DNA of 64,000 nucleotides, taken from positions 1-64,000 of IMG/VR virus record IMGVR_UViG_3300042691_029560; one strand, written 5' to 3'. Positions 48,381-64,000 of this stretch are shown piece by piece (position 1 is the stretch's first letter; every line of letters starts with the position of its first letter). The notes below the pieces were generated by a model. It ran no database searches. It worked only from the letters and a program-made list of their open reading frames with translations, and was not told the origin of the DNA. This stretch comes from a virus. Made by a program: the position numbers and the translations under genes.

Positions 48381-49499
48381 TTAACCGTGTACGAAATAGC
48401 CTAATGCAAATGCAAGAGCTGTATTAAATCCAGACTTGCCCTTAGACTGCCCGTAGATCCAAGCATCCTTGATCTGGCTAACGGCTTCATAGCCTTTTCC
48501 AGAGAATTCAGCAATATCTAGGACTGCATCATCATTACGCTTGTACTCGCCAGGCTTTCTAACAGTTACGGTTAGACCGTTTTTAACTGCAGCTGAAGCC
48601 ACAAGTGGGTCAATGCTTAGGGCCTTAGGGTGAGTATGAGGCAGCAAATCAGCGTCATCGGTTGAGAATGTTGTTAGCAACTTCTCACTACCAATCTGAG
48701 ACAAGAAGTTCTGTACTCGGCTAATTGCAAAGCGGTGGCGGGTTGTGCCTTCGGACATTTCACCAGCGTACTTTCTAGCTCCACGGCGGTAAACGGTCTT
48801 GCACTTAGCAAAAGTAGTCTTTAGGCCATCCTGAGCAGAAGCGTTGTAGTTGTCAACAAGTGATCGCAGCTCTGCTTCAACGTTGGTTGGAAGCACTAGT
48901 TCGCGAGAACGTCCAGATGCAAAGAATGCAGTTCCGTCTTGGTCATAACCATCTAGGAATGCAAGCTCGTCGTCCCAGCCGTCCTGAGAAATTGGAACTA
49001 TAGGAGACTCAACGTCAACAATCATAATTGTGCTAGTCGATGGGACCTGCATTCCTAGAGTTGCAGCCAACTGCCACTGCCACTTCTGGTGCATGTCTAT
49101 TCGCTCGGCAATAAAGTTTGCAACTCCCTGCTCATTGCAGCCATTTGCACAGTCAAAAGTCTGAACAAGGTGAGAGATAAGTTTACCGTTGACGTCAAGT
49201 AAAGACGAAACCATACGAGTCGGGTCGCTAGAGATTATCTTCTCTGGAACACAGGTCGCAAGGTCGTTGAACTCTGACATCATAAATGGAGCGTCAAAGC
49301 CGAGCTTGCGGATGTTCTCCGCCAGTGGGTCTAGCGATCCAGATACGTCTTCGTAAATGTCGCCAAAAAACTCGTGGAACTCTCTGAAGTCCATGCCTTT
49401 GACGTTCCAGTGATAGCCGTGAGAAACGTGATACATAACAGCAGCGTTTGCAAGTGCTGTAGATAGCTTGTCTCTTAGATCGGTTTTTGAGTGAGTCAT
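48381..49499 (-). CDS. dps: Dps/ferritin-like domain fused to a C-terminal phage domain
   Basis: H.YHWNVKG..F..FH.FF..IYE...D.LAE.IR.LG...HQKW.WQL Dps signature in the N-terminal ~150 aa; C-terminal VYRRG...RV.NF...DLLP..HP domain. Confidence 0.88.
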   Translation of the reverse strand: MTHSKTDLRDKLSTALANAAVMYHVSHGYHWNVKGMDFREFHEFFGDIYEDVSGSLDPLAENIRKLGFDAPFMMSEFNDLATCVPEKIISSDPTRMVSSLLDVNGKLISHLVQTFDCANGCNEQGVANFIAERIDMHQKWQWQLAATLGMQVPSTSTIMIVDVESPIVPISQDGWDDELAFLDGYDQDGTAFFASGRSRELVLPTNVEAELRSLVDNYNASAQDGLKTTFAKCKTVYRRGARKYAGEMSEGTTRHRFAISRVQNFLSQIGSEKLLTTFSTDDADLLPHTHPKALSIDPLVASAAVKNGLTVTVRKPGEYKRNDDAVLDIAEFSGKGYEAVSQIKDAWIYGQSKGKSGFNTALAFALGYFVHG

Positions 49500-49508
49500 C
49501 TTTTTACC

Positions 49509-51269
49509 TTACTGTGGTTCCGCTAGCGGAATTGGGGGAGCCTCCGGGTTTTCCTGGGCCGGAGCTTCTTGGGTTGGAGCTCCAGAAGGCGGAATTGCCT
49601 CTGGAGTTGGAGCTGCGGGAGCAGCGGGAGCAGGAGCAGGGGCACCTGGTTGTGCGCCTTGTAGCATCTGCTCTAAGCCTGGTGGAATTGGAGCAACAGA
49701 AGTTGCCTGTGATGCAGCACGGGTAGCTTCCATAACTTCTGGAGCGACTGCGTTTAGCATAGCTTCGGTAAGTTCTGGCGTGATCATACCCTTGTCCATA
49801 ATCATACGTAGAGCAACCTCTGTTGGACTTGGTGCATCCTGGTCTGAGAATCCGTGAGCACGTCTCCAAGTGTCGTAAGAAACTGCCATCTTCTCAAAGC
49901 CGGAGTCTGCATCCATTGCTCGGTCGTTACGAGTTGCAACTGCTGATGGGTCATACCAAGCAACAACTCTCTCGACTTCAGTGCGCGAGAAGCCATTGGC
50001 TAGAAGATATGGACGTAAGTAAACAACAGTAATCGCGTCTGCAATTAAAAGCATAAGTGGCTCAATGTGAGCCTTGTAAAGTGACTCGTCGATCTGAACC
50101 GCGTTTGAATACTTTACGTTTGCAAGACCAGTAACAATATCCTTAGGAACGTCGAGACCTTGCAGAATACGCTCTAGTACACGGTCAGCACGTTGAACAA
50201 GAGTTGCATCGAATGAACGCTCAAACTTGAACTGCTTAATCTTGTCACCAAGTTCCGCAGGACCACGAATGATCAGAGGAACAACTGCGGATGCAGAATC
50301 CTCGTCACGAATCGGAGTGGTCATCGCGTCGATTAGCTGGTCTTCAAATTCATCTGCCATCTCTTCTGGAGTTGGTTCAGCGGAAAGACCGTCTGCATCA
50401 TCGTACGGATAACTAGGGTCCGGAGTTGCGGCTACGGACAGGCCATCAGGCAGATAGAGCGCACCAGCGTTCAGACGGGAACGCGCCGTTGCACGGAACG
50501 TACGGTTTAGCAACAGTAGTTCTGCGCAAAGATCTAGAAGGCCACGTAAGCTCGAATCAGCTTCTTCAGAAAAACGTGGGTGAGCTCGCCAAATACGTCC
50601 TACGAACGCATTTGGTGGAAGTTTGATTCCCATGCCTTTACCATTTGCTGTTCCTTGTAGCATTTCACGACGGGCAATAACAGAGTACTGTCCTTTGGTG
50701 TCAATCTGCAGTTCGTCAATTGATCGGATGTCCCAGCTTTCTGGAATTCCAGATCCTTGACGTTCAGGAATTTGTACTAGGTAGCATTCGCCGGTAACAG
50801 ATAGGTTTAGGGCGGCGTCACGCAAAAGACCAGCCTGGCCTCCGTATGCGGAGTCTAGACGTTGAATTGCACGTTCGGCTGCAGAAGCTAGACGTGCTTC
50901 AATTGCATCTGCGTTACGAATTGGAACTGGTGCTTCTGCTGGATCAATAATGACCGCAGCGTAAAGACGAATACGAGAAACAACGGAAGCAACGAGTGAG
51001 AATGCGTATTTGATTTCACCGATCGCGTCGTAGTATTCCCAAGCTTCAGACTGCCACGCAGAAGAAGATGCTAGACGTCGGTTTCTAAATTGCTCGGCTT
51101 CGGTTCTGTCGTTCAGTTTAATCTGAGCAGCGGCAGCAGTAAGTGGACGTGGTTGATTATAACTTACCGAGGTCGCCGGAATGTATCCGTACGGAATTGG
51201 TAGAGACGTAGGTGGAAGTGGCATCGAGGTATTGCGACTTCGAGCTGGTTCACGTCTGAAAACTGCCAT
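49509..51269 (-). CDS. Portal protein
   Basis: WQ.EAWEYYDAIGE..YA...SR.RL, RIWR.HPR...ADS, SRL..G.L.LPD, DEDSASAVVP motifs of actinophage portals; Pro-rich tail. Confidence 0.88.
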   Translation of the reverse strand: MAVFRREPARSRNTSMPLPPTSLPIPYGYIPATSVSYNQPRPLTAAAAQIKLNDRTEAEQFRNRRLASSSAWQSEAWEYYDAIGEIKYAFSLVASVVSRIRLYAAVIIDPAEAPVPIRNADAIEARLASAAERAIQRLDSAYGGQAGLLRDAALNLSVTGECYLVQIPERQGSGIPESWDIRSIDELQIDTKGQYSVIARREMLQGTANGKGMGIKLPPNAFVGRIWRAHPRFSEEADSSLRGLLDLCAELLLLNRTFRATARSRLNAGALYLPDGLSVAATPDPSYPYDDADGLSAEPTPEEMADEFEDQLIDAMTTPIRDEDSASAVVPLIIRGPAELGDKIKQFKFERSFDATLVQRADRVLERILQGLDVPKDIVTGLANVKYSNAVQIDESLYKAHIEPLMLLIADAITVVYLRPYLLANGFSRTEVERVVAWYDPSAVATRNDRAMDADSGFEKMAVSYDTWRRAHGFSDQDAPSPTEVALRMIMDKGMITPELTEAMLNAVAPEVMEATRAASQATSVAPIPPGLEQMLQGAQPGAPAPAPAAPAAPTPEAIPPSGAPTQEAPAQENPEAPPIPLAEPQ

Positions 51270-51586: not shown

Positions 51587-51951
51587 TGAGTAGGGTCCAG
51601 TATCGAGCTTAGAGTGCGGTATGGATTCCACGCACGAAGACGTGAGCCACAGCCGCAAGAGTTATCTTTTTGGAATGCAAGCATCTTACCAGACGTCGTT
51701 AAAACGCGATATACGCCTGATTGAGAGTCTGCAGGAAAGTATGAAAGATACGTCTCGTGGAAGACGATCTGAGGGCCCTCTGGGGCATCTGAGGCCACTG
51801 TGACGTGTGTGTCAGAGACTATTACACGGGTCGTAGAGACGTAGAAGGTTCCAAGGATGTGAGAGATTGGATTTAGCTCAAAGACGTCCCTAAGGGCACC
51901 TGCAGGGGCCGCAGAAAAGTGTGCAGGAAAGACATCGGCTAGTATTCTCAT
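51583..51951 (-). CDS. Hypothetical protein with C-terminal CGCGS motif
   Basis: 122 aa; translationally coupled on both sides. Confidence 0.75.
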   Translation of the reverse strand: MRILADVFPAHFSAAPAGALRDVFELNPISHILGTFYVSTTRVIVSDTHVTVASDAPEGPQIVFHETYLSYFPADSQSGVYRVLTTSGKMLAFQKDNSCGCGSRLRAWNPYRTLSSILDPTQ

Positions 51952-52448
51952 TAGCTACCTAGTCTACGGGATATGGCTCGATGTGTGACTCCAGCTGCCC
52001 TGGCTATGTCAGCAATCGAGACGTTGTTGGCTCGAAGATCTTTAGCCATTTGAGTGAAAAGGGAATTGGCTACAGACTCAGGAGAAGATGACGCCATACC
52101 GGAACGGAAACGTCGGGCCAGGGGTGCTAGACGTCGGAGTTCTTCAGCGGTGATCGGAGGAACACCGGGGGATTTAGGAGTCTTTCTTTGATAGCCGTTG
52201 GCCGACGTTTTTAATGTTGGATCGGGAATAGGGACGTCGACGGTAACGTTTGGAGAAGGTCTATCCACCCAAGCTTTGACAGACGAACGTCCTTTCGGTG
52301 GATAGAGAGCGGACCCGATTGCGGAAAGGGTCCAACCCCCACGAAAGAGTTGCTGAACTCGGAGGACTTTGTGATCGTAGTCGAGAGAGTTTAGAAAAAG
52401 GGTTTCCGTTTGTGGAAGCTTTTGATTACGAGCTGGACGTCTGGACAT
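51951..52448 (-). CDS. Double helix-turn-helix DNA-binding protein
   Basis: GWTLSAIG and VSIADIARAAGVTHRAISRRL; paralogue of 55892..56455. Confidence 0.75.
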   Translation of the reverse strand: MSRRPARNQKLPQTETLFLNSLDYDHKVLRVQQLFRGGWTLSAIGSALYPPKGRSSVKAWVDRPSPNVTVDVPIPDPTLKTSANGYQRKTPKSPGVPPITAEELRRLAPLARRFRSGMASSSPESVANSLFTQMAKDLRANNVSIADIARAAGVTHRAISRRLGS

Positions 52449-52602
52449 GTGTACAGTTTATCAGAAGATGAGACATTGATTGCGGCTGTACTGTGCGTAA
52501 AAATGATACATTAACGTTTTTTGACTTTGGGCTGCGAGACGGCAACGCATGTTTTTCGCGTGCCGTCAAAACGTTTCCTGAATAATTCCTGAAAATCACA
52601 AG

Positions 52603-52621
52603 TTAGGTTAGGCTAACCTAA
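52603..52621. promoter_or_regulatory. DtxR/IdeR iron box 1
   Basis: TTAGGTTAGGCTAACCTAA, 19/19 match to the consensus TWAGGTWAGSCTWACCTWA. Confidence 0.85.
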
Positions 52622-52687
52622 GTTGTCTTGCGTGTAATGTGTGGGGGGTGGACGCAACTTCTAACGAACCAGACCAGACTTTATAAG

Positions 52688-52706
52688 TTAGGTTAGCCTA
52701 ACCTAA
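52688..52706. promoter_or_regulatory. DtxR/IdeR iron box 2
   Basis: TTAGGTTAGCCTAACCTAA, 19/19 match; reverse complement of box 1, 85 bp away. Confidence 0.85.
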
Positions 52707-52796
52707 CCAACTACAAACCTGACCAAGCCAAGCAAGTCATTTGGATACAAACAAAGCAACCCAAGCAAGTAGCATAACTTCCAACAGACTTCTAAC

Positions 52797-53103
52797 GAGC
52801 TGAGCTACGAGCTGAGCTACAAGCTAGCTATGAGCTGAGCTAGCTCAAAGCTACGAGCTGAGCTACGAGCTGAGCTACAAACTTCTAACGAGCTGAGCTG
52901 AGCTATGGGCTAGCTACTAGCTACGAGCTGAGCTTAGCTGAGCTATGAGCTACTAGCTATGAGCTGAGCTACGAGCTACAAGCTACGAGCTATGAGCTAC
53001 TAGCTATGAGCTGAGCTACGAGCCGAGCTGAGCTACGAGCTGAGCTGAGCTATGAGCTAGCTACTAGCTATGAGCTGAGCTGAGCTGAGCTACGAGCTAA
53101 GCT
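52797..53103. repeat. AGCT satellite, block 1
   Basis: Irregular tandem of GAGCT, GAGCTAC, GAGCTAT and TAGCT units; about 48 AGCT in ~307 bp. Confidence 0.95.
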
Positions 53104-53203
53104 AGCAAACTATCACCGCATCAACTTACAAAGTTCTATGGTGAAGCAGTAGTGATTAGTAATGACTAACAAACTTATTCCTGTCCGTCTAAACAACACA
53201 TAC

Positions 53204-53332
53204 GGATCCAAATGATAATAAAGCAATGATCAAATAAGCAAAGGCAAATAAATAATTGATCAACAATGATCACAAAGAGAGATCGTGATCAGCGATCATA
53301 AATAATGATCAAACCAATACAAATAACGATCC
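53204..53332. repeat. A-rich GATC cluster
   Basis: About 9 GATC (often TGATCA) in ~130 bp between the two AGCT blocks. Confidence 0.85.
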
Positions 53333-53344
53333 GTATGTCCGTGT

Positions 53345-53506
53345 ATGAGCTGAGCTATGAGCTGAGCTATCCAGCTATCCGTATGAGCTGAGCTATCAAC
53401 TTATAATGAGCTGAGCTATCCGTATGAGCTGAGCTATCAACTTATAATGAGCTGAGCTATCCGTATGAGCTGAGCTATGAGCTACAAGCTGAGCTGAGCT
53501 ATCCGT
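53345..53506. repeat. AGCT satellite, block 2, with a ~41-bp direct duplication
   Basis: About 19 AGCT; the unit ctatccgtatgagctgagctatcaacttataatgagctgag is repeated. Confidence 0.92.
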
Positions 53507-53508
53507 AT

Positions 53509-53551
53509 AAATAAATAATCCCCTATCAAGTTGATAAGGGATTATTTATTT
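53509..53551. terminator. Bidirectional intrinsic terminator
   Basis: AAATAAATAATCCC-CTATCAA-G-TTGATAA-GGGATTATTTATTT inverted repeat just after the 53561 stop. Confidence 0.8.
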
Positions 53552-53560
53552 AGATACAAA

Positions 53561-54393: not shown

Positions 54394-54468
54394 TTAGGTT
54401 CCCTTTCCGTAGTGGTAAGTCAATGCTACTACATACAACCGACAAAGCAAGGGATTTATTCCCAGAGA

Positions 54469-55881
54469 TTATCTAACTTTAAAGATACCTTTTCTGGATC
54501 CACCAGCTTCGCTTCCACGGGGATTAGGTATCTTTCTACCAGCAACCGATCGGGCTGTAATCTTTCCACCTGTAAATCCCGACGGGGGTTTGATAAGCAA
54601 GGCAGTTAGGGCGTGAACCAGGGCGTCTACCCTGTCCGGTGATTTGCCTTCGCCAGGTATCCAAGAATACATCTGGCTTTCCAATGATCCGAGATAACCT
54701 ATGTGGTGAACCCTACCCTGCTCATAAGCCAATGTGACGGGTTCTGCTCTCAAGGCCTTTCCGTATTTGGAATGGACTTCTAATACTTTTATGTTTGGAT
54801 CTATTGTGTGGATCGCATTCTTCACCAATGCTCCACCTTGGTTCACTTCGGCTACAACAGGGCAACCCCACTTGCGAGCCATCTCTACAACCTTGTTAGC
54901 CCAAACATCGGGACTTCCGTGAACACTTGCGTCTTCCAATACCCAAGCTTGACGCTTGTATAAATCTCTCTCAGCAGTAGACGAAACTACGACAATCCCA
55001 CATTCATCTCTCGGGTTCTCAGCAACGCTAGGGTCAACACCAATGATCCGTAATGGAACGCCAAGTGGCATAGCACCTTGACGATACTGCTCAATCAGTT
55101 CTTCTGTCCACAAAGCACCCTCAACGCTATCTAACATCTCACCATAGATTTCTTGCTGAGCCAAGCGAGTTCCCTCATAAACACCCGTGATAGCGTCAAG
55201 ATAAGCACTAGATAAGTTCCCTGAGTTGTCCAATGTAGACCCACGAGTAATAACTACACGACCCGTCTTCGCTTCTTCTATCAACTTGTAAAGCAATGGA
55301 ACACGCTTCGGTGTTGTAGTGACCATAATCTTAGGATTAGATCCAAGACGAGTTCCAACACGCAAGTTATCAAAGGCAGTCATACCAGCTGCGTCTGGTG
55401 TCTGTCGCCAAGCAGCGATCTCATCTCCCCAAGCGTGAGTAAATTGTGGACCACGAAGCGAGTCTGGTTCATCTGCCGTGAAGCAAGTAGCAACATTTCC
55501 GTTAGGCCAAGTTAGTCTTCGCTTGGATGGTTCATACAAAGGTCTTTCACTAGGGGGAGTCACATTCATAATCCCCGACTCACCTTCTACGATTACATCT
55601 CTAACATCGGCAGCCGTTCTTGCGACTAATGCAAAGCGACGCTGTCCCGTAGTTGTATGCTTCGCTTCTTCACGAACCCATTCAGCAGCAGTTCTAGTCT
55701 TACCAGCACCACGACCAGCAATGTAAGCCCAAATGTTCCAATCACCAGCCGGGGTTTGCTGTTCAGGGCGACCCCAAGCAGACCAATCCCACATAAGCGT
55801 TTCCGGATCCATACCAGCCAATACTCTTGCTTGTTCTTCCGGAGATAGCAAAGCTATCTGTTCCATTAGGGACTTAGCCAT
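54469..55881 (-). CDS. terL: Terminase large subunit
   Basis: Walker A AGRGAGKT, LRGPQF, Walker B AWGDE, coupling motif TTTP, nuclease GVDPS and SPDRVDA. Confidence 0.95.
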   Translation of the reverse strand: MAKSLMEQIALLSPEEQARVLAGMDPETLMWDWSAWGRPEQQTPAGDWNIWAYIAGRGAGKTRTAAEWVREEAKHTTTGQRRFALVARTAADVRDVIVEGESGIMNVTPPSERPLYEPSKRRLTWPNGNVATCFTADEPDSLRGPQFTHAWGDEIAAWRQTPDAAGMTAFDNLRVGTRLGSNPKIMVTTTPKRVPLLYKLIEEAKTGRVVITRGSTLDNSGNLSSAYLDAITGVYEGTRLAQQEIYGEMLDSVEGALWTEELIEQYRQGAMPLGVPLRIIGVDPSVAENPRDECGIVVVSSTAERDLYKRQAWVLEDASVHGSPDVWANKVVEMARKWGCPVVAEVNQGGALVKNAIHTIDPNIKVLEVHSKYGKALRAEPVTLAYEQGRVHHIGYLGSLESQMYSWIPGEGKSPDRVDALVHALTALLIKPPSGFTGGKITARSVAGRKIPNPRGSEAGGSRKGIFKVR

Positions 55882-55891
55882 AAACTCCTAC

Positions 55892-56455
55892 TTACTCTTG
55901 GTCAATAATAACCCTGTTCTTATCTAGGATAGCAGAATACACTTGGCTCTTACCTGTCGTTTCTGTCTTATACCCGTATCTAGCAAGACGGAAACGAATA
56001 GCCCCGTGAGTAATCCCTAGCAACTTGGCTAAGCGATACACCGAAACTCCTTCTACTTCTACTGCCTTGTTTAGCAGATACGAGTATTCTTCGGCTTCCC
56101 TGCGATACTTCTTGCTATGAGAACGAACCTGTTGGGCTAGTGGTTGTAGTTCCACTAGGCGACTAAGCGTTTCATTACTAGGCAAGATAATAACTCTTGT
56201 AGATTTCACTACTTCGGGGGCGATAGGTGGTGTTGGTAGTGGAAACTCAACTGCCTTATCGGTATCAACGCTAGATTTGGCGATTTGCCTTGCTCTCTCT
56301 CTTGTAATCTCAAACGCAACGCCAATGCTCTCAAATGTCCAACCTAGACCCCTTAGAGCCTTTACATAGGCATCTCTAAGTTCTCTATCGGTGATACTTC
56401 TAGCAGTAGCGACTACTTCTTCGGGGATTTGGTGATTTTGCTTCACATAAGACAT
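55892..56455 (-). CDS. Double HTH DNA-binding protein (sigma region 4-like)
   Basis: GWTFESIG..FEITRERARQI and VSVYRLAKLLGITHGAIRFRL; directly upstream of terL. Confidence 0.8.
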   Translation of the reverse strand: MSYVKQNHQIPEEVVATARSITDRELRDAYVKALRGLGWTFESIGVAFEITRERARQIAKSSVDTDKAVEFPLPTPPIAPEVVKSTRVIILPSNETLSRLVELQPLAQQVRSHSKKYRREAEEYSYLLNKAVEVEGVSVYRLAKLLGITHGAIRFRLARYGYKTETTGKSQVYSAILDKNRVIIDQE

Positions 56456-56563
56456 AACTTTCTCCTTTTGTCGTGTGTATTTGTCTTTCTACAACATTAC
56501 AAGATAATAACGAGAAATGCCAACTCGCAAATGCGAATTGGCATTCCTTAGTAGCGAACAGAT

Positions 56564-57100
56564 CTATAAGACTACTCTTACATTAGGATCATTAGCAAAG
56601 ATCAGCTCAAATGTCTCGGCGTTGATCACGCCATCTCCCACTAGGCCACGATCAGCCTGGAACTGAGCGATCGCTGATTTAGTTACATCTCCGTAATACC
56701 CGTCTTTATCTTTCAGGGCTACAACATAACCAAGTTCATACAATCTTCGTTGTAAGTGGTGGATCGTTAGCGACTTGCGATTGTAGATGTTCTTGTAGAT
56801 ACACTTGTCCAAGAACACTTCATCAACTACGCCTAGTCCAACCACAGCTGGCCCTGCCGGGACAACTTCTTCTTGCTTGATAGGTGGAGCCGGAGTTGGA
56901 ACCATACCACCATCCGTGATCTCAATAACCGGAGCGATCTTTACCGGAATAGGATCTGGATCTACAACCGGCTCTTCTACCGGATCTACGACAGGTTCTT
57001 CTACCGGATCTTGATCAACAACCGGCTCTTGATCTACAACAAGATCATTAGTTAGATCCGGATCTTTATTTTCTTTATTATTTGCCACTGATTTCTCCAA
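56564..57100 (-). CDS. Peptidoglycan-binding domain protein with acidic Pro-rich N-terminal repeats
   Basis: LQRRLYELGY...DGYYG..TKSAIAQFQ...GL..DGVI...T (PG_binding_1 pattern); EPVVDP repeats. Confidence 0.85.
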   Translation of the reverse strand: MEKSVANNKENKDPDLTNDLVVDQEPVVDQDPVEEPVVDPVEEPVVDPDPIPVKIAPVIEITDGGMVPTPAPPIKQEEVVPAGPAVVGLGVVDEVFLDKCIYKNIYNRKSLTIHHLQRRLYELGYVVALKDKDGYYGDVTKSAIAQFQADRGLVGDGVINAETFELIFANDPNVRVVL

Positions 57101-57112
57101 TCTAATAAATGA

Positions 57113-57274
57113 TTACGCTCGCTGGGCAAGCAGAGCAAGTGAAATGCTTCCAAGACCTAAGACAACTGCGACAGCTGGATTAAAGAACGCAACGATCACA
57201 GCCAATCCTAGAAATACAACAGAAAAAATGGCCGGCCACACCAAATCACGCAACCGGATAAGCCAACTAGACAT
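57113..57274 (-). CDS. Small membrane protein, 2 TM (53 aa), not in the ORF track
   Basis: MSSWLIRLRDLVWPAIFSVVFLGLAVIVAFFNPAVAVVLGLGSISLALLAQRA. Confidence 0.7.
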   Translation of the reverse strand: MSSWLIRLRDLVWPAIFSVVFLGLAVIVAFFNPAVAVVLGLGSISLALLAQRA

Positions 57275-57275
57275 A

Positions 57276-57437
57276 CTAATCTTCTTTCTTCGGGGAAACT
57301 ACCCCAAGTAGAGTTTGTGGCTCCGGATCATTCTTCCGGGCCATACGATCAGCATACAGGAATAAGATCCCATAAGAGATCCCATTGATCAATAAGATCG
57401 ATCCAATGATCGCAAGTAAAAACCATAAAAGTTCCAT
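57276..57437 (-). CDS. Small membrane protein, 1 TM (53 aa), not in the ORF track
   Basis: MELLWFLLAIIGSILLINGISYGILFLYADRMARKNDPEPQTLLGVVSPKKED; TAATG coupling. Confidence 0.7.
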   Translation of the reverse strand: MELLWFLLAIIGSILLINGISYGILFLYADRMARKNDPEPQTLLGVVSPKKED

Positions 57438-57589
57438 TAGTCCACCAAATCTTCATCAAAAGTAGAATACCAATCATCTTTCTCAGATCCGTATAGGTAT
57501 AAAACCTTAGCAATCGGCAGCAGCACAGCTACGGCCAGGATCAAAAAGATAAACACCCCTAGGGTGAATAAAAGGATTGTAAGGATCAT
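57437..57589 (-). CDS. Small membrane protein, 1 TM (50 aa), not in the ORF track
   Basis: MILTILLFTLGVFIFLILAVAVLLPIAKVLYLYGSEKDDWYSTFDEDLVD; apparently little or no leader. Confidence 0.65.
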   Translation of the reverse strand: MILTILLFTLGVFIFLILAVAVLLPIAKVLYLYGSEKDDWYSTFDEDLVD

Positions 57590-57607
57590 AAAGAAATGAT
57601 ACCTTAG

Positions 57608-57641
57608 AAAAAACCCCCCTAGTTTATGACTAAGGGGGTTA
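57608..57641 (-). terminator. Intrinsic terminator
   Basis: AACCCCCTTAG-TCATAAA-CTAGGGGGGTT followed by TTTT on the minus strand. Confidence 0.8.
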
Positions 57642-57648
57642 TCTACTA

Positions 57649-57834
57649 CTAATCTCTATGCCTACGCCTAATAAATCTAGGCAATTCACTAATAGCAAGA
57701 ACCAAAGCACCAAAGATTAGCAATAGACCGAGAGATAGTCCAACAAACATAGAGTTTGTATGACCGAGATGCTCACCAAAGTAAAATCCCATAATCACCG
57801 AACTACAACCGAGAGCCATTAGTAAAAACTTCAT
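57649..57834 (-). CDS. Small membrane protein (2 TM)
   Basis: 61 aa, hydrophobic, AGGAG RBS. Confidence 0.7.
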   Translation of the reverse strand: MKFLLMALGCSSVIMGFYFGEHLGHTNSMFVGLSLGLLLIFGALVLAISELPRFIRRRHRD

Positions 57835-58040
57835 TAGTCATTTCTCCTTAGAGCATCAAACGCAAACAACAAAGTAAATCCTACACCGAGAACCATACCG
57901 AACCCAAAGTAATCGGCAAAGGTGTTTCCATTAGAACCAGCACCATAAGCGATTAGCATTACGCAACCAACCGAATAGACAAGTCCAACAAACGGAACAA
58001 TAACAATACCAGCAAGTAATCTACGAACAAAGAACTTCAT
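57834..58040 (-). CDS. Small membrane protein (2 TM)
   Basis: Start moved to MKFFVRR after the GAAAGGAG RBS. Confidence 0.7.
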   Translation of the reverse strand: MKFFVRRLLAGIVIVPFVGLVYSVGCVMLIAYGAGSNGNTFADYFGFGMVLGVGFTLLFAFDALRRND

Positions 58041-58102
58041 TTGTAATCTCCTTTCCTGAGATACTAAAAGTCTATACCACAATAAAGCAAACACACAAGT
58101 AT

Positions 58103-58240
58103 TTATTTAGACCACTTTTTAGGGCAGTCCATATGGAAATAGGTAATAAGAGCCTGAGTTGGATCGGTAGTAGTAGCACCACACCACATACAAGACCAGC
58201 TCTCTTTTTTAGACTTCTTAGGGGACTTACGATCTGCCAT
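58103..58240 (-). CDS. Small Zn-finger-like protein
   Basis: AAAGGAG RBS before MADRK; CMWC...H..C. Confidence 0.6.
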   Translation of the reverse strand: MADRKSPKKSKKESWSCMWCGATTTDPTQALITYFHMDCPKKWSK

Positions 58241-58251
58241 TAGTTTCTCCT

Positions 58252-58356
58252 TTACTTTTTGGCGTTTAGGTTGTGAGCAATCCAAGATAACTTATGAGCA
58301 ACGCTTACAAGCGTGCCACTAATACTTAGCAAGCGTTTAGCGATTTTCTTTTTCAT
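58252..58356 (-). CDS. 34-aa basic peptide, not in the ORF track
   Basis: AAGGAG RBS; MKKKIAKRLLSISGTLVSVAHKLSWIAHNLNAKK. Confidence 0.5.
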   Translation of the reverse strand: MKKKIAKRLLSISGTLVSVAHKLSWIAHNLNAKK

Positions 58357-58442
58357 TAGAACTCCTTGTGTTGTAAGTCTAGTGGATTAGGTGAGCAGTT
58401 TAGAACACTTGCTCAGGTGTTATCTCTTTCTATGAGATTGGC

Positions 58443-58673
58443 TTATGATAACTTTTCACCGAGAGCAGTTAGCAACTCGTAAGGTGAAACACGCAACTCT
58501 CGGCAAAGGGTAGCAAGCGTGTTTGACGGGATGTGTCGCTGATTGTGAAAGTATCGGCTAAGGCTAGACTTCTGTAAGCCCGTAGCGATTGCGAATTGGT
58601 TTAGGGATTGGTAGCCCTGACTTTCATACTGAGCAACGAACCACGCCCAAGTATCTACTTTTTTCTTTCCCAT
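58443..58673 (-). CDS. XRE/Cro-family HTH protein
   Basis: SLNQFAIATGLQKSSLSRYF...P...LATLCREL.VSPYELL. Confidence 0.85.
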   Translation of the reverse strand: MGKKKVDTWAWFVAQYESQGYQSLNQFAIATGLQKSSLSRYFHNQRHIPSNTLATLCRELRVSPYELLTALGEKLS

Positions 58674-58705
58674 TTTGTTTCTCCTTTTCTAATCGGGAAT
58701 AACTC

Positions 58706-58735
58706 AATCTAACCACAACTCAAACTTATTCGCAA
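58706..58735 (-). promoter_or_regulatory. Sigma70/SigA-type early promoter
   Basis: TTGCGA-N18-TAGATT upstream of an AAAAGGAG RBS. Confidence 0.6.
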
Positions 58736-58804
58736 GTTTATTTGTATCCGTGTTTGGATCGGTTTCCAGAGATCTCCAAGCTTCGGCCGGCCATAGCCTA
58801 GACA

Positions 58805-59329
58805 CTACCAACTCGGGTTAGTAGTGTCTAGGGCTAGCAACCACTCAACAAAGTTAGGGTTGAACAGAACTAACTCGTGTCGCTTCTCACGCATTAGGTC
58901 AATCGCTTCTTGGACTTGGTATCCGTCAAGCATTAGAACTATCGCCATAAGTAAGCCAGACCTATTTAGACCTGCTTGGCAACGGACTAGCACCTTTTCC
59001 CCAGACTTCCAATCAGTAAAGATGTTGTAAGCGATACGCATAAATGCTTTTTCATCAAAGTCAGTATCAGCACTATCAAAGTATCCGTATCTAAACTCTT
59101 TTACTAACCAATCAACAGGGTTAGCGTGAGCATAGAAAGTATAAACGCTATCAAAGTTTCGCTTCTTGATAGAGATTAGGGGTCTATCAAACTCGCAATG
59201 CTTATCACCAACTCGGTCATCATCATCAGTTCCACCTAGCCAAAGGTTAGGCAGTATCTCACTCCAAAGTTCAGGCTTGGTGAACTTCTTAGTTTTTGCT
59301 TCGTCATAAGATTTTTCGTAGTTATTCAT
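58805..59329 (-). CDS. Dual-specificity / protein tyrosine phosphatase
   Basis: EILPNLWLGG and catalytic loop VLVRCQAGLNRSG (CX5R). Confidence 0.9.
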   Translation of the reverse strand: MNNYEKSYDEAKTKKFTKPELWSEILPNLWLGGTDDDDRVGDKHCEFDRPLISIKKRNFDSVYTFYAHANPVDWLVKEFRYGYFDSADTDFDEKAFMRIAYNIFTDWKSGEKVLVRCQAGLNRSGLLMAIVLMLDGYQVQEAIDLMREKRHELVLFNPNFVEWLLALDTTNPSW

Positions 59330-59403
59330 TTTGTCCTTTCACTAACTACAACCTAAATACTATTTGATTTATTCCCGAGATTAGAAATAATTTTGGATCG
59401 TGT

Positions 59404-59571
59404 TTAGTCAAACTCCCGAATAGATTTTGACTTGTTAGCCAAGCGTGTTCTTGCTCGCTTGCTTCGCTTATCAGCGTGAACGCCACTAGCGTTAGAGCGT
59501 GAACGCTCACGCAACATAATCTCCAACGCCAAAGCTTCGGCATTACGCCTTGCCTTATTAGCCTTGTTCAT
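59404..59571 (-). CDS. Small very basic protein (55 aa), not in the ORF track
   Basis: GAAAGGAA RBS; MNKANKARRNAEALALEIMLRERSRSNASGVHADKRSKRARTRLANKSKSIREFD. Confidence 0.75.
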   Translation of the reverse strand: MNKANKARRNAEALALEIMLRERSRSNASGVHADKRSKRARTRLANKSKSIREFD

Positions 59572-59696
59572 TTTCATTCCTTTCCCGAATGGCAGACACT
59601 CTAATCCTATCAGTTAGGGCAGACATAGCAAGTGGCGTGTCGCGGCCACAGATCAACCGGCAGAGATCTCTACCGGATCTCCCGGCCGGTAGAGAT

Positions 59697-59729
59697 AATC
59701 CCCCTGGCGAATGATCCAGGGGGATTTTC
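59697..59729. terminator. Intrinsic terminator-like hairpin
   Basis: AATCCCCCTGG-cgaatgat-CCAGGGGGATT after the 59745 stop. Confidence 0.7.
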
Positions 59730-59744
59730 TAAGTCGGTGGCAGA

Positions 59745-59957
59745 TTAGATGTAATCGCTAAACGCTAGCAAAGGGTCAAAGGGTTCTGGCTTTTTCTTTA
59801 CTCGCATTTTCTCAACATAATCGCTGTCTTTCCATTGCTCGGCTCCACAAGACGGACAAAGTAGTTCACCCGTTCTAGTTAGCGATTGCTCCCCGTAGAA
59901 GTGTCCACAAGCAACACAATCAAAGATGTAGATGTAGTGTTTTCTAAACCCGAACAT
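59745..59957 (-). CDS. Zn-ribbon protein
   Basis: CVACG...CPSCG; GAAAGGAA RBS. Confidence 0.8.
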   Translation of the reverse strand: MFGFRKHYIYIFDCVACGHFYGEQSLTRTGELLCPSCGAEQWKDSDYVEKMRVKKKPEPFDPLLAFSDYI

Positions 59958-59969
59958 TAGTTTCCTTTC

Positions 59970-60125
59970 CTAGTAGTTTTCGTTTAGGTATTCCATAAGT
60001 TCAGTATAACTCTTTCCAAGAGAAATCAAACTAATAAGTTGCTCATCCATAGCAAGTAAGTTTATGTCTATCAAGCTCTCACCCGAAAGCATAAGTAAGA
60101 TTTTACCTACTGCTCCAATTCCCAT
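59970..60125 (-). CDS. Hypothetical protein (51 aa), not in the ORF track
   Basis: GAAAGGAA RBS; MGIGAVGKILLMLSGESLIDINLL...EYLNENY. Confidence 0.7.
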   Translation of the reverse strand: MGIGAVGKILLMLSGESLIDINLLAMDEQLISLISLGKSYTELMEYLNENY

Positions 60126-60283
60126 TTCAGTTCCTTTCCAGAGAATTCCAGCAATTCGTTTTTCTGCTCATCGGTGAGCATAGCAAACGCCATACCAGCA
60201 AGATACGCATAAGCGTTATCCTCTTTATCAGTTTTACCTGTCCTGATTAGGTTGTCGATAATTTGTTTTGCTAAAGTATCCAT
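60107..60283 (-). CDS. Hypothetical protein (58 aa), not in the ORF track
   Basis: GAAAGGAA RBS; MDTLAKQIIDNL...AYAYLAGMAFAMLTDEQK. Confidence 0.7.
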   Translation of the reverse strand: MDTLAKQIIDNLIRTGKTDKEDNAYAYLAGMAFAMLTDEQKNELLEFSGKELKWELEQ

Positions 60284-60295
60284 TTGGTTCCTTTC

Positions 60296-60487
60296 TTATT
60301 CGTTGTCTAGTTTATCAGGTTCATCGTAGTTATCGTGCCAGATTTCATCTGGTATCGCCCAAATAGTTTCTAACTCCATAAGTCGCTGGTTCAGCACTCT
60401 TAGGGTTTTGTTTTTTGGTTTTTCTAGCCAAGTTGGATCGTTTGTTATGTCGCTGATTACTGCCTTGTAAGCGTCTGCTAGTTCCAA
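60296..60487 (-). CDS. Hypothetical early protein
   Basis: GAAAGGAA RBS, TTG start. Confidence 0.7.
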   Translation of the reverse strand: MELADAYKAVISDITNDPTWLEKPKNKTLRVLNQRLMELETIWAIPDEIWHDNYDEPDKLDNE

Positions 60488-60564
60488 GGTTGTTTCCTTT
60501 CATCCGTGTATCTAAACATTACCACATTTGATTATTTTACAAAGTTTAGATCGATCGGTGTTGA

Positions 60565-60753
60565 TTATTTTTTTCTTTTCTTTTTATCGCCAATTGCGAC
60601 AATAATATCAACTTCGTAGAAGCGTTCTACAACTTCTCTTGCTGTTTCCCAAGTAGATAGTTCGATGTAAGTTCCATTGTGCATTTCCACAAGTTCATCA
60701 GCAAGGCGTTCTAGTAGTTCATCGCTACTTAGGTGTTTTACATACTTAGCCAT
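60565..60753 (-). CDS. Hypothetical early protein
   Basis: GAAAGGAA RBS; promoter-like TTGCCT-N18-TAAACT upstream. Confidence 0.75.
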   Translation of the reverse strand: MAKYVKHLSSDELLERLADELVEMHNGTYIELSTWETAREVVERFYEVDIIVAIGDKKKRKK

Positions 60754-60855
60754 TAGTTAGTTTCCTTTCGGGATTAGGGGTTTCAGTTTATAGCAAACTT
60801 GCGACATTAGGCAAGATTTATTCCGGCAAGTCTGGATCAAATTTGTAAAGCTTCT

Positions 60856-61026
60856 TTACTCCGGATTAGTCTGCTTCTTTAGAACTCTAACTCTCCGGCT
60901 AAGTCTAAGGTTAGGTTGGAATGGAATTAGTCCGGCGGCCATCGCCAGGTACACAAGTTCGTAAAGCTTCCGTGTCTGGAACTTGTCTAGTTCAGCGATC
61001 TGTTCAGGCGTTAGTTTAGTTCTCAC
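60856..61026 (-). CDS. Hypothetical protein (56 aa), not in the ORF track
   Basis: GTGA coupling with the upstream gene; MRTKLTPEQIAELDKFQTRKLYELVYLAMAAG... Confidence 0.55.
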   Translation of the reverse strand: MRTKLTPEQIAELDKFQTRKLYELVYLAMAAGLIPFQPNLRLSRRVRVLKKQTNPE

Positions 61027-61187
61027 TCTTGCTCACTCTCGTCAATAGGAAACGCTTGTCTAAACGCTTCATCTACTTCGGGGTCAAAGAGCCACTCCAA
61101 GAAACCCCTAACACCACTCTCGGTGTTCAGGTCAAACTTAGGGTTCAGTAGTGGGTTCTGGTCTGGGTCTGGGATTTGATTAGTCAT
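61023..61187 (-). CDS. Small acidic protein (54 aa), not in the ORF track
   Basis: GAAAGGAAG RBS; MTNQIPDPDQNPLLNPKFDLNTESGVRGFLEWLFDPEVDEAFRQAFPIDESEQE. Confidence 0.7.
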   Translation of the reverse strand: MTNQIPDPDQNPLLNPKFDLNTESGVRGFLEWLFDPEVDEAFRQAFPIDESEQE

Positions 61188-61220
61188 TTACTTCCTTTCA
61201 GTAAATAGAACCAAGTTTAT

Positions 61221-61418
61221 TTAGGATTTATTCCCGATTTGGATTTTATTTTTCAGTTGTCGCAACCTAATCCGTGTTGTCCCGTGGGTCTTACACCACT
61301 TCGGGTGCTTACACGGAACTAAGACAAGTCGCCTTTCGCCGAATGGGTCTTTATCTTTCAGTAGTCCAAGGGCAAACAATTCGGCTTTCTCGGCATCGCC
61401 TTTTTTCTCAACAAACAT
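61221..61418 (-). CDS. Hypothetical protein with C.HP.WC..HG motif
   Basis: Start moved to MFVEKK after the GAAAGGAAAG RBS. Confidence 0.65.
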   Translation of the reverse strand: MFVEKKGDAEKAELFALGLLKDKDPFGERRLVLVPCKHPKWCKTHGTTRIRLRQLKNKIQIGNKS

Positions 61419-61693
61419 AACTTTCCTTTCCAATAAAGATAACTCTATCAACCTTGGATTTATTCCCAAGTATTTCAATAAGTTTTGATCGGCCGGCCGG
61501 TGAGCTTAGCCACGCAGATACGGAAACACCCCCAACCAGAAAAATAGAGAAAACTAGTTAGGGGTGTTCCTTTATAGGAAAGGAAACTACTGACTTGGTG
61601 AAACATGAAAAACCAAGTCGGGCAAGTGAGATACTCTCGAACTTGCTTATTGCTAGGTTAGCAAATAAATAACAAAATAGCAACACCAAAAGC

Positions 61694-61724
61694 AAAAAAC
61701 CGTAGCAATTTAGCTACGGTTTTT
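61694..61724. terminator. Bidirectional intrinsic terminator
   Basis: AAAAAACCGTAGC-aattta-GCTACGGTTTTT after the NlpC/P60 stop. Confidence 0.8.
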
Positions 61725-61737
61725 CGCTGATTTGGAT

Positions 61738-62295
61738 CTATCCAGCAAACGCAGGTTTTTTGTTTGATACCTGATCAATGACCCTTACAAACCGGATCTG
61801 ACTATTTTTGTAGTCAGATAGTGGCTGTATGATCGTCGATCTTGCTCCGTAATGAGCGTTTATGATCTTTCCATTACCAATATAGATTGCTGAGTGGTAG
61901 AAGCTATGACTGCCCTTGTAGGCAAACACAACCACATCTCCAGCTCGGGGGTTGGACACACGCTTACCAATATGCGCTTGCTTATCGGCAGAATGAGGGA
62001 TTTCTAGGCCGAACCTTTGGTAGGTCCAGCGAACTAATCCTGAGCAGTCCCAACCCCTTGGAGAAGATCCGGAGAACACATAGGGTGTTACTCCAACCTT
62101 AGTCCGTAAGTATTTGATGACTTGCTTCATCCGGACAGTATTGCGATGAAGCTTCAACGGATCGTCAGAATACTTATTCGCAACACTATTTTTCTGATCC
62201 GAAACAACCATAGGTCTATGATCGTATCCGGACGCAGCTGATGAACATCCAACTAGCATTAGGAGCACACTAGTTATTGTGATGAACCTCTTCAT
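61738..62295 (-). CDS. NlpC/P60 cell-wall peptidase, predicted lipoprotein
   Basis: PYVFSGS...GWDCSGLV...H.AIYIGNG.IINA catalytic pattern; signal peptide with lipobox LVGC. Confidence 0.9.
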   Translation of the reverse strand: MKRFITITSVLLMLVGCSSAASGYDHRPMVVSDQKNSVANKYSDDPLKLHRNTVRMKQVIKYLRTKVGVTPYVFSGSSPRGWDCSGLVRWTYQRFGLEIPHSADKQAHIGKRVSNPRAGDVVVFAYKGSHSFYHSAIYIGNGKIINAHYGARSTIIQPLSDYKNSQIRFVRVIDQVSNKKPAFAG

Positions 62296-62440
62296 TTGGC
62301 GACCACCTTTCCTTGCGTTAGTACAGGTCGTTTATTGTCGGGTCTCCCGTCACATTGATCCGAAAACCAATGTGTCTAAATTATAAGGGCCAATTAGATC
62401 TACAAACAACATTTTTGATCAATTTTTCCGAAAAAATAGC

Positions 62441-62468
62441 AAAAACCCCTGGAAAACCAGGGGTTCTT
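62441..62468 (-). terminator. Intrinsic terminator
   Basis: AACCCCTGG-tttt-CCAGGGGTT-TTT on the minus strand. Confidence 0.8.
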
Positions 62469-62485
62469 ACATTGACCGGAGATTT

Positions 62486-62698
62486 CTACTCTGCCGGTGT
62501 GTTCTCGGCGATTTGCTCCTTGAGCCAAGCTAACGCAGCCTGCCGGCCCTTTACTCCGCGACCGAAAGTCTTGTAAGCGTCAATGTTGAGCAACCGGCCC
62601 AATGACTTCATAGCCGGTTCGCCAAAAGTCATCTTTCCGTCTGTGCTGATTTCAAACTCCAAGTTGATAACTAGGATTTCTGCCTGTAGTGAGTTCAT
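62486..62698 (-). CDS. Hypothetical early protein
   Basis: GAAAGGAA RBS. Confidence 0.75.
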   Translation of the reverse strand: MNSLQAEILVINLEFEISTDGKMTFGEPAMKSLGRLLNIDAYKTFGRGVKGRQAALAWLKEQIAENTPAE

Positions 62699-62806
62699 TT
62701 GATTTCCTTTCGCCTAACTACATAAAAAGCCTACACCAAAAACTAAAAAACACAAACATAAAAACATAAATAGATCTGTTTCTATGTTTGTGTCGTTTAG
62801 TGTTTG

Positions 62807-63022
62807 TTAGATACTCCACGCACCAAAGTCGGTATCGGCAGCGATACGCCTAGCGTTCATCCACGCACTTTCTCCATAAAAGTATGTGACTTTCTTGGTG
62901 ACTTTGTTTCTAACTTTCCAATAGTCTTGCTCGAATACCGCAGTTCCATAACTAACTTCCACTAGGTCGCTGTTATAAGCAACTGTCCATTCTTTCACTA
63001 GACTTACGCTTGGCTTAGCCAT
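62807..63022 (-). CDS. Hypothetical early protein
   Basis: GAAAGGAA RBS; K.TYFYGESAW..A.R motif. Confidence 0.75.
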   Translation of the reverse strand: MAKPSVSLVKEWTVAYNSDLVEVSYGTAVFEQDYWKVRNKVTKKVTYFYGESAWMNARRIAADTDFGAWSI

Positions 63023-63154
63023 TTAGTTTCCTTTCGGTTGATTATCGATAATCTGTGTAAATAGTTTATTGACTACCCTGTCCATATGGCAAGGGTCGCA
63101 TAGAAAAGATTCGCTCGGTAAAAGCTCCGTTCGGCAGTCTAAACAGGTTCGCAC
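63023..63154 (-). CDS. Small Zn-finger protein (43 aa), not in the ORF track
   Basis: MRTCLDCRTELLPSESFLCDPCHMDR...; fills the gap exactly. Confidence 0.6.
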   Translation of the reverse strand: MRTCLDCRTELLPSESFLCDPCHMDRVVNKLFTQIIDNQPKGN

Positions 63155-63339
63155 TATTTCAGCGCCTTTCTAGTCTTTCTTAGCGATACCAATTCCTTTA
63201 CATCGCTAATGCCGATATTGTCTAAGGCAGATACAACTTTGTAAGCAATTTCTAATGACTTGTGTTCGGTTGAGATAGGGGCTAATACTTTGGTCGCAAC
63301 TTTGGCAACAATCTTGGCAGTAATAATTTCGGCTAGCAT
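63154..63339 (-). CDS. Hypothetical early protein
   Basis: GAAAGGAA RBS and promoter. Confidence 0.7.
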   Translation of the reverse strand: MLAEIITAKIVAKVATKVLAPISTEHKSLEIAYKVVSALDNIGISDVKELVSLRKTRKALK

Positions 63340-63361
63340 TTATTTCCTTTCGTAGAATTAC

Positions 63362-63391
63362 AGACTACATTACACCTAAGACATTTCGCAA
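63362..63391 (-). promoter_or_regulatory. Sigma70/SigA-type early promoter
   Basis: TTGCGA-AATGTCTTAGGTGTAATG-TAGTCT. Confidence 0.7.
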
Positions 63392-63459
63392 CATTTCACC
63401 AAACTAAATTGGATCGTGTTGTAGAGATCTCTAAGCTTGGTGAGCAGATAGGCTACGGC

Positions 63460-63804
63460 CTATCTGTCGAAAACAGTATCTAAAAACTCTTGCTTTGTAT
63501 AGACAACTTCTCGATAGACAACATTTCCGTCGTCAGCAGAAATAATAATTGCTTCATTGTCGTCAGCGAAAAATCGGTTCTCTCCCACGCTAATACCGAA
63601 ACTTAGGTTTCCGTCATAGTTAGCCCGTGTAGAAAACTCATAGAAAAGTTGAGCAGTTAGATAAGCAGGGTCGCCAATTCTATCTGTTCTCGATAAAACA
63701 TCTACTACGGCAAGCACATTATCTGTTCCTGACCAGTGGCCGTAAAGGTGGATAGGTTCGATAAAGTCTTTGCTTGTTACAATAATTCTTGACCTGTCGC
63801 CCAT
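63460..63804 (-). CDS. Hypothetical early protein (MGDR...LY.HW.G type)
   Basis: 114 aa; GAAAGGAA RBS. Confidence 0.8.
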   Translation of the reverse strand: MGDRSRIIVTSKDFIEPIHLYGHWSGTDNVLAVVDVLSRTDRIGDPAYLTAQLFYEFSTRANYDGNLSFGISVGENRFFADDNEAIIISADDGNVVYREVVYTKQEFLDTVFDR

Positions 63805-63833
63805 TTGGATTTCCTTTCATTCGGGACACTAAA

Positions 63834-63862
63834 AGACTACACCTAACCTAAGACATTCGCAA
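63834..63862 (-). promoter_or_regulatory. Sigma70/SigA-type early promoter
   Basis: TTGCGA-ATGTCTTAGGTTAGGTG-TAGTCT (17-bp spacer); near-copy of the 63362 promoter. Confidence 0.7.
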
Positions 63863-63899
63863 GCGTGTCGCAAGCCGGCCGGAGCTGGATCAAAAAGTT

Positions 63900-63931
63900 G
63901 TCCCCCGTTAGGCGCTAACATAACGGGGGAC
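63900..63931. terminator. Terminator-like hairpin
   Basis: GTCCCCCGTTA-N10-TAACGGGGGAC. Confidence 0.65.
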
Positions 63932-64000
63932 TAATTTGGTCGTACACCTAAGCAGTTGTTGTGAACATTATTAAGTTATTTATACTTAGATGTTTGTCGC

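Follow-up and report, generated by a model that had tools for sequence, protein, structure and literature searches.

Why should a phage carry, ahead of its structural genes, two perfect copies of what looks like the operator of a bacterial iron regulator? The window analysed here, a stretch of 64,000 nucleotides, is the first 64 kb of a 92,713-bp IMG/VR record with 43.6% GC and an estimated completeness of 54%. In it, two 19-mers match the strict iron-box consensus, the 19-bp palindrome TWAGGTWAGSCTWACCTWA, at all 19 positions (Table 1); the consensus is the actinobacterial one. Both 19-mers are palindromic, differ from each other at the central base alone and start 85 bp apart. They span 155–258 bp upstream of the ATG at 52448, with near edges at 155 and 240 bp, and are located in noncoding DNA, the stretch 52449–53560 being free of genes. 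The initial annotation had reported two perfect boxes at these positions, 85 bp apart, upstream of a run of HTH, portal and Dps genes; positions and spacing were right, neither box had a mismatch and the downstream genes were as described, the portal matching phrog_776 and the Dps gene PF00210. The single ORF there, 57 amino acids long and over the promoter block (52426–52599), was rejected as a gene because frameshifting indels break it in a close relative (L002).

Table 1. Features of the late control region and of the first late genes, in window coordinates; promoters and terminator are predictions.
Feature	Position	Strand	Description
Dps/ferritin-like fusion	48381..49499	-	PF00210, E 7.5e-17; domain at aa 10-149; C-terminal ~220 aa without assigned function
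Portal protein	49509..51269	-	phrog_776, E 1.5e-102
First late gene, 165-aa two-HTH protein	51951..52448	-	HTH_23 / Terminase_5-like in relatives
Predicted promoter P2	52455..52463	-	Extended -10 TGATAAACT, 6 nt before ATG, leaderless geometry
Predicted promoter P1	52508..52537	-	-35 TCGCAG 52532-52537, 18-nt spacer, -10 TAATGT 52508-52513
GGAAAC-n-ATTT imperfect palindrome	52567..52578	-	Conserved throughout the phage group; possible target of a phage protein
Proximal iron box	52603..52621		Strict DtxR/IdeR consensus, + strand centre G; centre 164 bp upstream of HTH ATG
Inter-box element	52655..52680	-	Identical in window and L002/L003, rest of spacer diverged; contains CGTTAGAAGT, which recurs twice in the satellite
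Distal iron box	52688..52706		Strict consensus, + strand centre C; centre 249 bp upstream of HTH ATG
Gene-free satellite	52795..53509		AGCT-rich short repeats 52795-53104 and 53344-53509, on either side of a GATC-rich, A-rich stretch
Probable terminator hairpin	53508..53552	-	Strong hairpin, 22-nt arms, 95% complementary, directly after the last terminase-operon gene

The strict consensus was found exactly at 120 or more loci in a collection with one genome per prokaryotic species, nearly all of those listed belonging to Actinomycetota, and the genomic copies whose neighbours we inspected were next to genes for a FecCD permease, ZIP metal transporters, a DtxR-family protein, a siderophore-interacting protein and an ABC transporter. 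With a degenerate form of the consensus, 33 of 301 Actinomycetia genomes had any site, totalling ~43 sites in ~1.2 Gb, and the reversed consensus gave 0 sites in the same genomes; the tally includes one unpublished genome, G023, on which no result rests. The same sequences, including the variant carried by the window's closest relative, are DmdR1 sites in Streptomyces siderophore clusters (PMC7174319). The reading of the motif as an actinobacterial DtxR/IdeR operator, first proposed from the letters alone, is thus borne out by its taxonomic distribution, its iron-related neighbours and its identity with known DmdR1 sites.

Within the phage, the two sites stand alone. Allowing up to three mismatches, we found no others in the window, against a mean of 0.03 sites in shuffled sequences, none of 100 shuffles reaching two. 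When up to five mismatches to the strict consensus were allowed across the whole 92.7-kb record, the search additionally returned just two shifted-register windows overlapping the boxes, and no other IMG/VR contig contained a copy of the strict consensus. Given the scarcity of even degenerate sites in Actinomycetia genomes, a 93-kb phage with two perfect sites in a single 104-bp stretch is extreme.

Judged by its sequence affinities, the window is actinophage DNA, since the portal and the large terminase (TerL) are nearest to those of the Actinomycetia phage DSL-LC01 (73–78% identity), followed by Microbacterium phages of ~190 kb (about 60–65%) and then by Arthrobacter and Gordonia phages. DSL-LC01 comes from a lake metagenome and is predicted to infect Actinomycetia (PMC10611076). 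Megablast of the box region against cultured phages gave zero matches, the record contains no tRNAs, and Pfam searches with ten larger ORFs outside the window found no host-specific gene; a prepilin-peptidase-like phage gene showed only 30–34% identity to homologues in a low-GC, small-genome actinobacterial order. All three near-complete relatives have a serine recombinase of ~220 aa (PF00239; G001:81442-81882, G002:18057-18497, G005:115199-115639), which could be an invertase or a resolvase, and no tyrosine integrase was found in them.

All genes around the boxes are on the minus strand. In the order of transcription, small early genes (92–54 kb) are followed by a TerS-like 187-aa protein and TerL, a terminator, a gene-free region of 1.1 kb and the late block, a nearly continuous run of ~52 kb that encodes the two-HTH protein, a 122-aa protein, the portal, the Dps fusion, giant proteins and other virion genes. 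As the terminator and the gene-free stretch precede the boxes and the HTH-portal-Dps block begins downstream of them, the boxes head the entire late block. The hairpin after the terminase operon is a probable terminator that would isolate the late control region; searches against Rfam returned only spurious miRNA matches on it. Between this terminator and the late promoter block, each relative has a short-repeat satellite of its own, with units that are AGCT-based in the window, CACGCGCCACCCT in L024/L033, GT repeats in L006, ATCGT-based in L008 and ATAAGT in L028.

The region between the boxes and the first late gene contains further candidate control elements. The GAAAC core of the GGAAAC element is the same in all 12 aligned loci. 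The core of the P1 block is conserved across relatives (-10 TAAKGT in the 12-locus alignment) and, by motif scan, unique in the genome, and P2 shares its -10 and an AATGTC spacer motif with the early promoter family of the phage. That family numbers ~22 members (TTGCGA, AATGTC in the spacer, TAAACT-type -10) in the window at 54400–64000 and in G000 at 64001–78100; its members precede small early genes, the last being at ~54445, upstream of TerL. Measured from the predicted P1 start, the box centres are ~111 and ~196 bp upstream. Our scans found no sigma-70-like or phage-early-type promoter overlapping either box in the window.

The first late gene encodes a DNA-binding protein. For this 165-aa protein, HTH_23 and Terminase_5-like matches were found in 10–11 of 17 relatives, and its AlphaFold model (pLDDT 87.8) has two helix-turn-helix domains. 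Comparison of the model with the PDB gave nothing significant, the best rows being sigma factors with E > 0.6, and searching the sequences of the PDB by profile gave no significant match either. A distant paralogue, with 28–30% identity in cross-hits, is the 187-aa protein encoded ahead of TerL (55892–56455; sigma-70 region 4-like HTH); either of the two paralogues, or neither, may be the small terminase.

We searched for the boxes in relatives of the phage, using 80 IMG/VR contigs retrieved via the portal protein. Among these, boxes were found in the closest two alone (L002 and L003, portal 91% identical), in the homologous place and 84 bp apart as against 85 bp in the window. Their proximal box differs by a symmetric T7A/A13T pair, at positions that vary among true sites, and its palindrome is intact; their distal box carries two substitutions, of which one departs from the consensus and counts as one mismatch to its degenerate form. 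Part of the spacer separating the two boxes has diverged. Searching IMG/VR with the degenerate form gave 34 contigs, and the multi-box contigs all belong to the window's phage group: more distant members have three boxes (L088), two and one single-mismatch site (L092) and two (L096), in every case in the gene-free region upstream of the HTH homologue. The 29 single-box contigs are weak evidence on their own, and some may be chance matches. Altogether, the relatives' boxes have zero or one mismatch to the degenerate consensus, and in four related records, two near-complete and two partial, all sites with at most one mismatch are confined to the late control region. The scan of related phages proposed with the initial annotation recovered both the pair, in the nearest relatives, and sets of two or three boxes further out. 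The perfect sites, the kept spacing and the palindrome-preserving substitutions indicate that the boxes are currently under selection in the window's phage lineage. The distance from box to gene ranges from 155 bp to ~1 kb among relatives, a spread that classical operators do not usually show. At up to two mismatches, zero iron boxes were found in the five cultured relatives scanned, GMA2, GodonK, Sixama, Forza and Pumpernickel.

Several of the phages with boxes show other arrangements around them. L088 (12400–13411) and L092 (7000–7600) contain tandem pairs of strong TTGACT-17-TAGAAT sigma-70-like promoters (10–11 of 12 matches), all directed towards the HTH gene, each pair being followed by an iron box 36–47 nt downstream and then by the motif CTGCGGTAAT; the motif GTATCCTAATGA has five copies in L092 and one in the window. 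The two boxes of L096 flank a dual-specificity-phosphatase-like gene (1388–1927) that is transcribed away from the HTH gene and has a homologue in the window at 58805–59329. In L113 the iron box overlaps a predicted -10. A separate lineage of ~53% GC (L095, at 3837–3924, L107, L109 and L111) has a degenerate-consensus box after a terminator and ~70 bp before the major capsid gene (PF05065).

The place taken by the iron boxes in the window is held by a different operator in several of its sister phages. The actinobacterial SOS box, the site of LexA, is TCGAAC-N4-GTTCGA, and these sisters have such boxes 117–180 bp upstream of the HTH gene. Two perfect copies are present in L029 and L030 (L029:553-602, L030:5571-5620) and one in L035 (907–922); L025 (217–232) and L024/L033 (L024:190-205) have one box each with a single mismatch, and L027 has a weaker LexA-like box with more than one mismatch, spotted by eye. 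They adjoin the conserved GGAAAC element or overlap it. A complete phage of the LexA-box type has zero iron boxes at up to three mismatches. In the TerL tree, the window and L003 are sister to L030, which has LexA boxes, and L018, which has neither kind (support 95/91), and the iron-box phages L096 and L088 fall outside this set. The iron-box phages thus do not form a clade, and operators have been replaced at a position that itself stayed fixed. Because the LexA sites of the sisters occupy the spot of the iron boxes, the window's phage and its sisters probably make virion production depend on a stress signal from the host. In another phage lineage, an iron box is found beside a perfect LexA box, near a terminator-like hairpin (L112:7742-7776, L098:37-73).

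The protein that reads the iron boxes is likely a host regulator of the IdeR type. No DtxR-family gene (PF01325) was found in G000 or in the four relatives checked, which include records 93, 94 and 100% complete, and the recognition helices of the HTH protein hardly change between phages with iron boxes, with LexA boxes and with neither. The type of box is likewise independent of similarity in the HTH protein, L027 (68%) and L029 (60%) being without intact iron boxes and L092 (44%) having them. The target of the HTH protein is likely something equally conserved, such as the GGAAAC-n-ATTT element. As for hosts, the DtxR N-terminal domain is present in 120 of 121 genomes of Microbacteriaceae (the family holding a Microbacterium MAG), including genomes of 0.9–1.7 Mb, and some small Microbacteriaceae genomes have iron boxes with one mismatch. 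In the low-GC (46–50%) actinobacterial order of G303, with genomes of 1.2–2.2 Mb, either DtxR-family domain was found in 0 of 61 genomes and LexA in all 61; this order, which we take to be acI-like, must sense iron by another regulator, and its gene content suggests that the type of box may track the regulator repertoire of the host. A host from it would make the boxes orphans, and the absence of the domain there makes a host lacking the regulator the main risk to our reading. Most likely, the iron-box phages infect a low-GC host that has IdeR.

We consider it fairly probable that these phages couple their late switch to the iron status of the host through IdeR/DtxR at the boxes. In this reading, the two palindromes would be operators of the Fe(II) sensor of the host, a DtxR/IdeR-family regulator, and would have been recruited into the late control region; binding of the regulator would alter transcription from the predicted promoters P1 and P2 downstream, and the onset of late transcription, with ~52 kb of virion genes, would be tied to host iron. 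Gating of structural-gene expression had been one of three options offered in the initial annotation, and it fits best, as the boxes head the virion block and LexA boxes hold the same spot in the sisters.

The direction of this control could be either of two. IdeR is a repressor where its box overlaps the promoter and an activator from upstream tandem boxes (PMC9132128), and one iron box takes two IdeR dimers (PMC8464063). Under repression, plentiful iron would keep the late genes silent and iron shortage would fire them, IdeR either hindering a phage factor at the GGAAAC element or blocking RNA polymerase arriving from upstream. This is favoured because LexA, solely a repressor, holds the same place in the sisters and because the boxes of other phages are in repressor-type positions; in the window itself, no box covers a predicted -10 or start, the predicted P1 and P2 being more than 100 bp downstream. 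Alternatively, IdeR could activate, or relieve silencing, from tandem boxes further upstream, as it does at mycobacterial bfrB. This is supported by the distance of the boxes from the predicted P1, with no promoter overlap, and by the ferritin-like gene in the operon, a gene that is there regardless of boxes. On balance, our analysis leans slightly towards repression over activation.

The Dps gene deserves separate consideration. It is the fourth gene of the structural operon, right after the portal, and its Dps domain has all four ferroxidase residues (His, His, Asp and Glu). The initial annotation had joined it with the boxes into an iron-sensing and iron-handling system, a link for which we found no specific support: Dps follows the portal in most relatives, with boxes or without, and also in the LexA-box phage, and the association is therefore nonspecific. 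G002 encodes it as a stand-alone protein of 164 aa, and Microbacterium phage Pumpernickel lacks it. Feedback through Dps is possible. An iron-dependent small subunit of ribonucleotide reductase, sought as a reason for iron sensing, was not found.

A wider reading, which we put forward tentatively and hold to be rather doubtful, is that an entire family of large freshwater actinophages has a conserved late switch wired to whichever host stress repressor is available, deferring virion production, with Dps as a possible lock-on. The switch would use IdeR where the host has IdeR and LexA elsewhere, by operator turnover at a fixed spot, and nominally lytic phages would wait for a signal of iron shortage or DNA damage in the host. 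In the iron-box members, the operon's Dps could draw down free Fe(II), which would keep the switch locked on.

Other explanations leave late transcription out of the account or assign the boxes to another protein. Perfect sites on replicating genomes could titrate host IdeR and derepress host iron uptake, phage transcription not being directly affected. This sponge, the second option of the initial annotation, would profit from sites that match the consensus better than most native ones, and it sits well with boxes in the window that overlap no predicted promoter, with the variable distance to the next gene among relatives and with the three boxes of L088 and L092 in a repeat-rich, gene-free array. 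We keep it as a rival and judge it unlikely: there are two sites per genome here, not many sites lacking an adjacent target, both stay at a single control region immediately before the late block, and the LexA boxes of the sisters, tight against a conserved phage element, look like regulation and not like titration. It is also quite unlikely that the boxes are relics, inherited or captured and functionless in a present host that lacks a DtxR-family regulator or does not use one. The order with 0 of 61 genomes positive shows that such hosts exist among low-GC, small-genome Actinomycetia, the iron-box phages are all low in GC (43–48%), and decay is exemplified by L027/L029, whose distal iron box has a 3-bp insertion. 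On the other hand, the signs of current selection described above speak against relics, and the small-genome Microbacteriaceae do have the regulator.

The third option of the initial annotation, that the host protein acts as an architectural factor at the genome end, has become very unlikely. Here the gene-free region would be a pac/cos site or an origin, on which the host protein builds a nucleoprotein complex; the first downstream gene, with its two HTH domains and the Terminase_5/HTH_23-like matches in relatives, would suit this, as would the order in L088 (gene-free region, HTH, TerS-like protein, TerL, portal) and the short repeats and GATC cluster of the region. However, in G005, a relative that is complete with terminal repeats in the assembly, the homologous region is ~53 kb inside the contig, the terminase is ~27 kb (Pumpernickel) and ~20 kb (GodonK) from base 1 of the linear record, and these two phages have no large gene-free gap at the corresponding spot; the swapping of IdeR and LexA sites is also hard to square with a single structural role. 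Highly improbable, finally, is a binder encoded by the phage, for instance the 165-aa HTH protein, with the match to the iron box being mimicry or coincidence. A DNA-binding protein does start the operon, and several relatives have other palindromes at a similar upstream distance, but the type of box does not track this protein, whose recognition helices hardly vary and for which the GGAAAC element is a better partner, and 19 of 19 matches to a host operator, twice, are implausible as chance.

If host IdeR does gate the 52-kb virion block, phage output in iron-poor lakes would depend on the metal status of the host. To our knowledge, control of phage genes by a host iron repressor is hardly documented beyond toxin genes of temperate phages (tox, stx1), and our literature search turned up no description of IdeR boxes in the control region of phage late or structural genes. 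The interchange of IdeR and LexA at one position would be a clear case of one phage switch rewired to different host sensors.

Precedents exist for the parts of such a switch. Phage switches under LexA control include GIL01, coliphage 186 tum and CTXphi. The window's sister phages resemble them in having perfect actinobacterial SOS boxes at the homologous position; the window, in contrast, has iron boxes there, and in the relatives we found no integrase and only the ~220-aa serine recombinase. The tox promoter of corynephage beta carries a DtxR operator, one box that covers the -10 of a gene for lysogenic conversion in a temperate phage. The likeness is close, an identical 19-bp palindrome on phage DNA being read there by the host iron repressor, whereas here two perfect boxes are upstream of the predicted promoters of a virion block, in a large uncultured phage with no toxin gene.

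At mycobacterial bfrA and bfrB, IdeR is an activator that acts through tandem upstream boxes by relieving Lsr2, bfrB having four adjacent boxes (PMC9132128). The window shares with bfrB several boxes well upstream of a promoter, here a predicted one, and a ferritin-like gene in the unit, but it has two boxes 85 bp apart instead of four adjacent ones, and Dps is fourth in a structural operon and not a dedicated storage gene. In phages of Alphaproteobacteria, comparative-genomic evidence on CtrA boxes has been interpreted as 'lytic deferment' (PMC9437464). There, too, sites for a host master regulator are present in phage promoter regions and bear on the timing of the lytic cycle, although CtrA is a cell-cycle regulator, not a metal or SOS sensor, and the hosts belong to another phylum. 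The lytic Bacillus phages phi29 and Nf have boxes for Spo0A, which blocks early promoters and keeps p4 from activating the late promoter (PMC2731898). The regulator and the signal differ, the latter being sporulation, and what was shown by experiment in those phages is deduced from sequence here; yet a host global regulator that hinders a phage activator is the very logic that we propose for LexA and IdeR beside the GGAAAC element.
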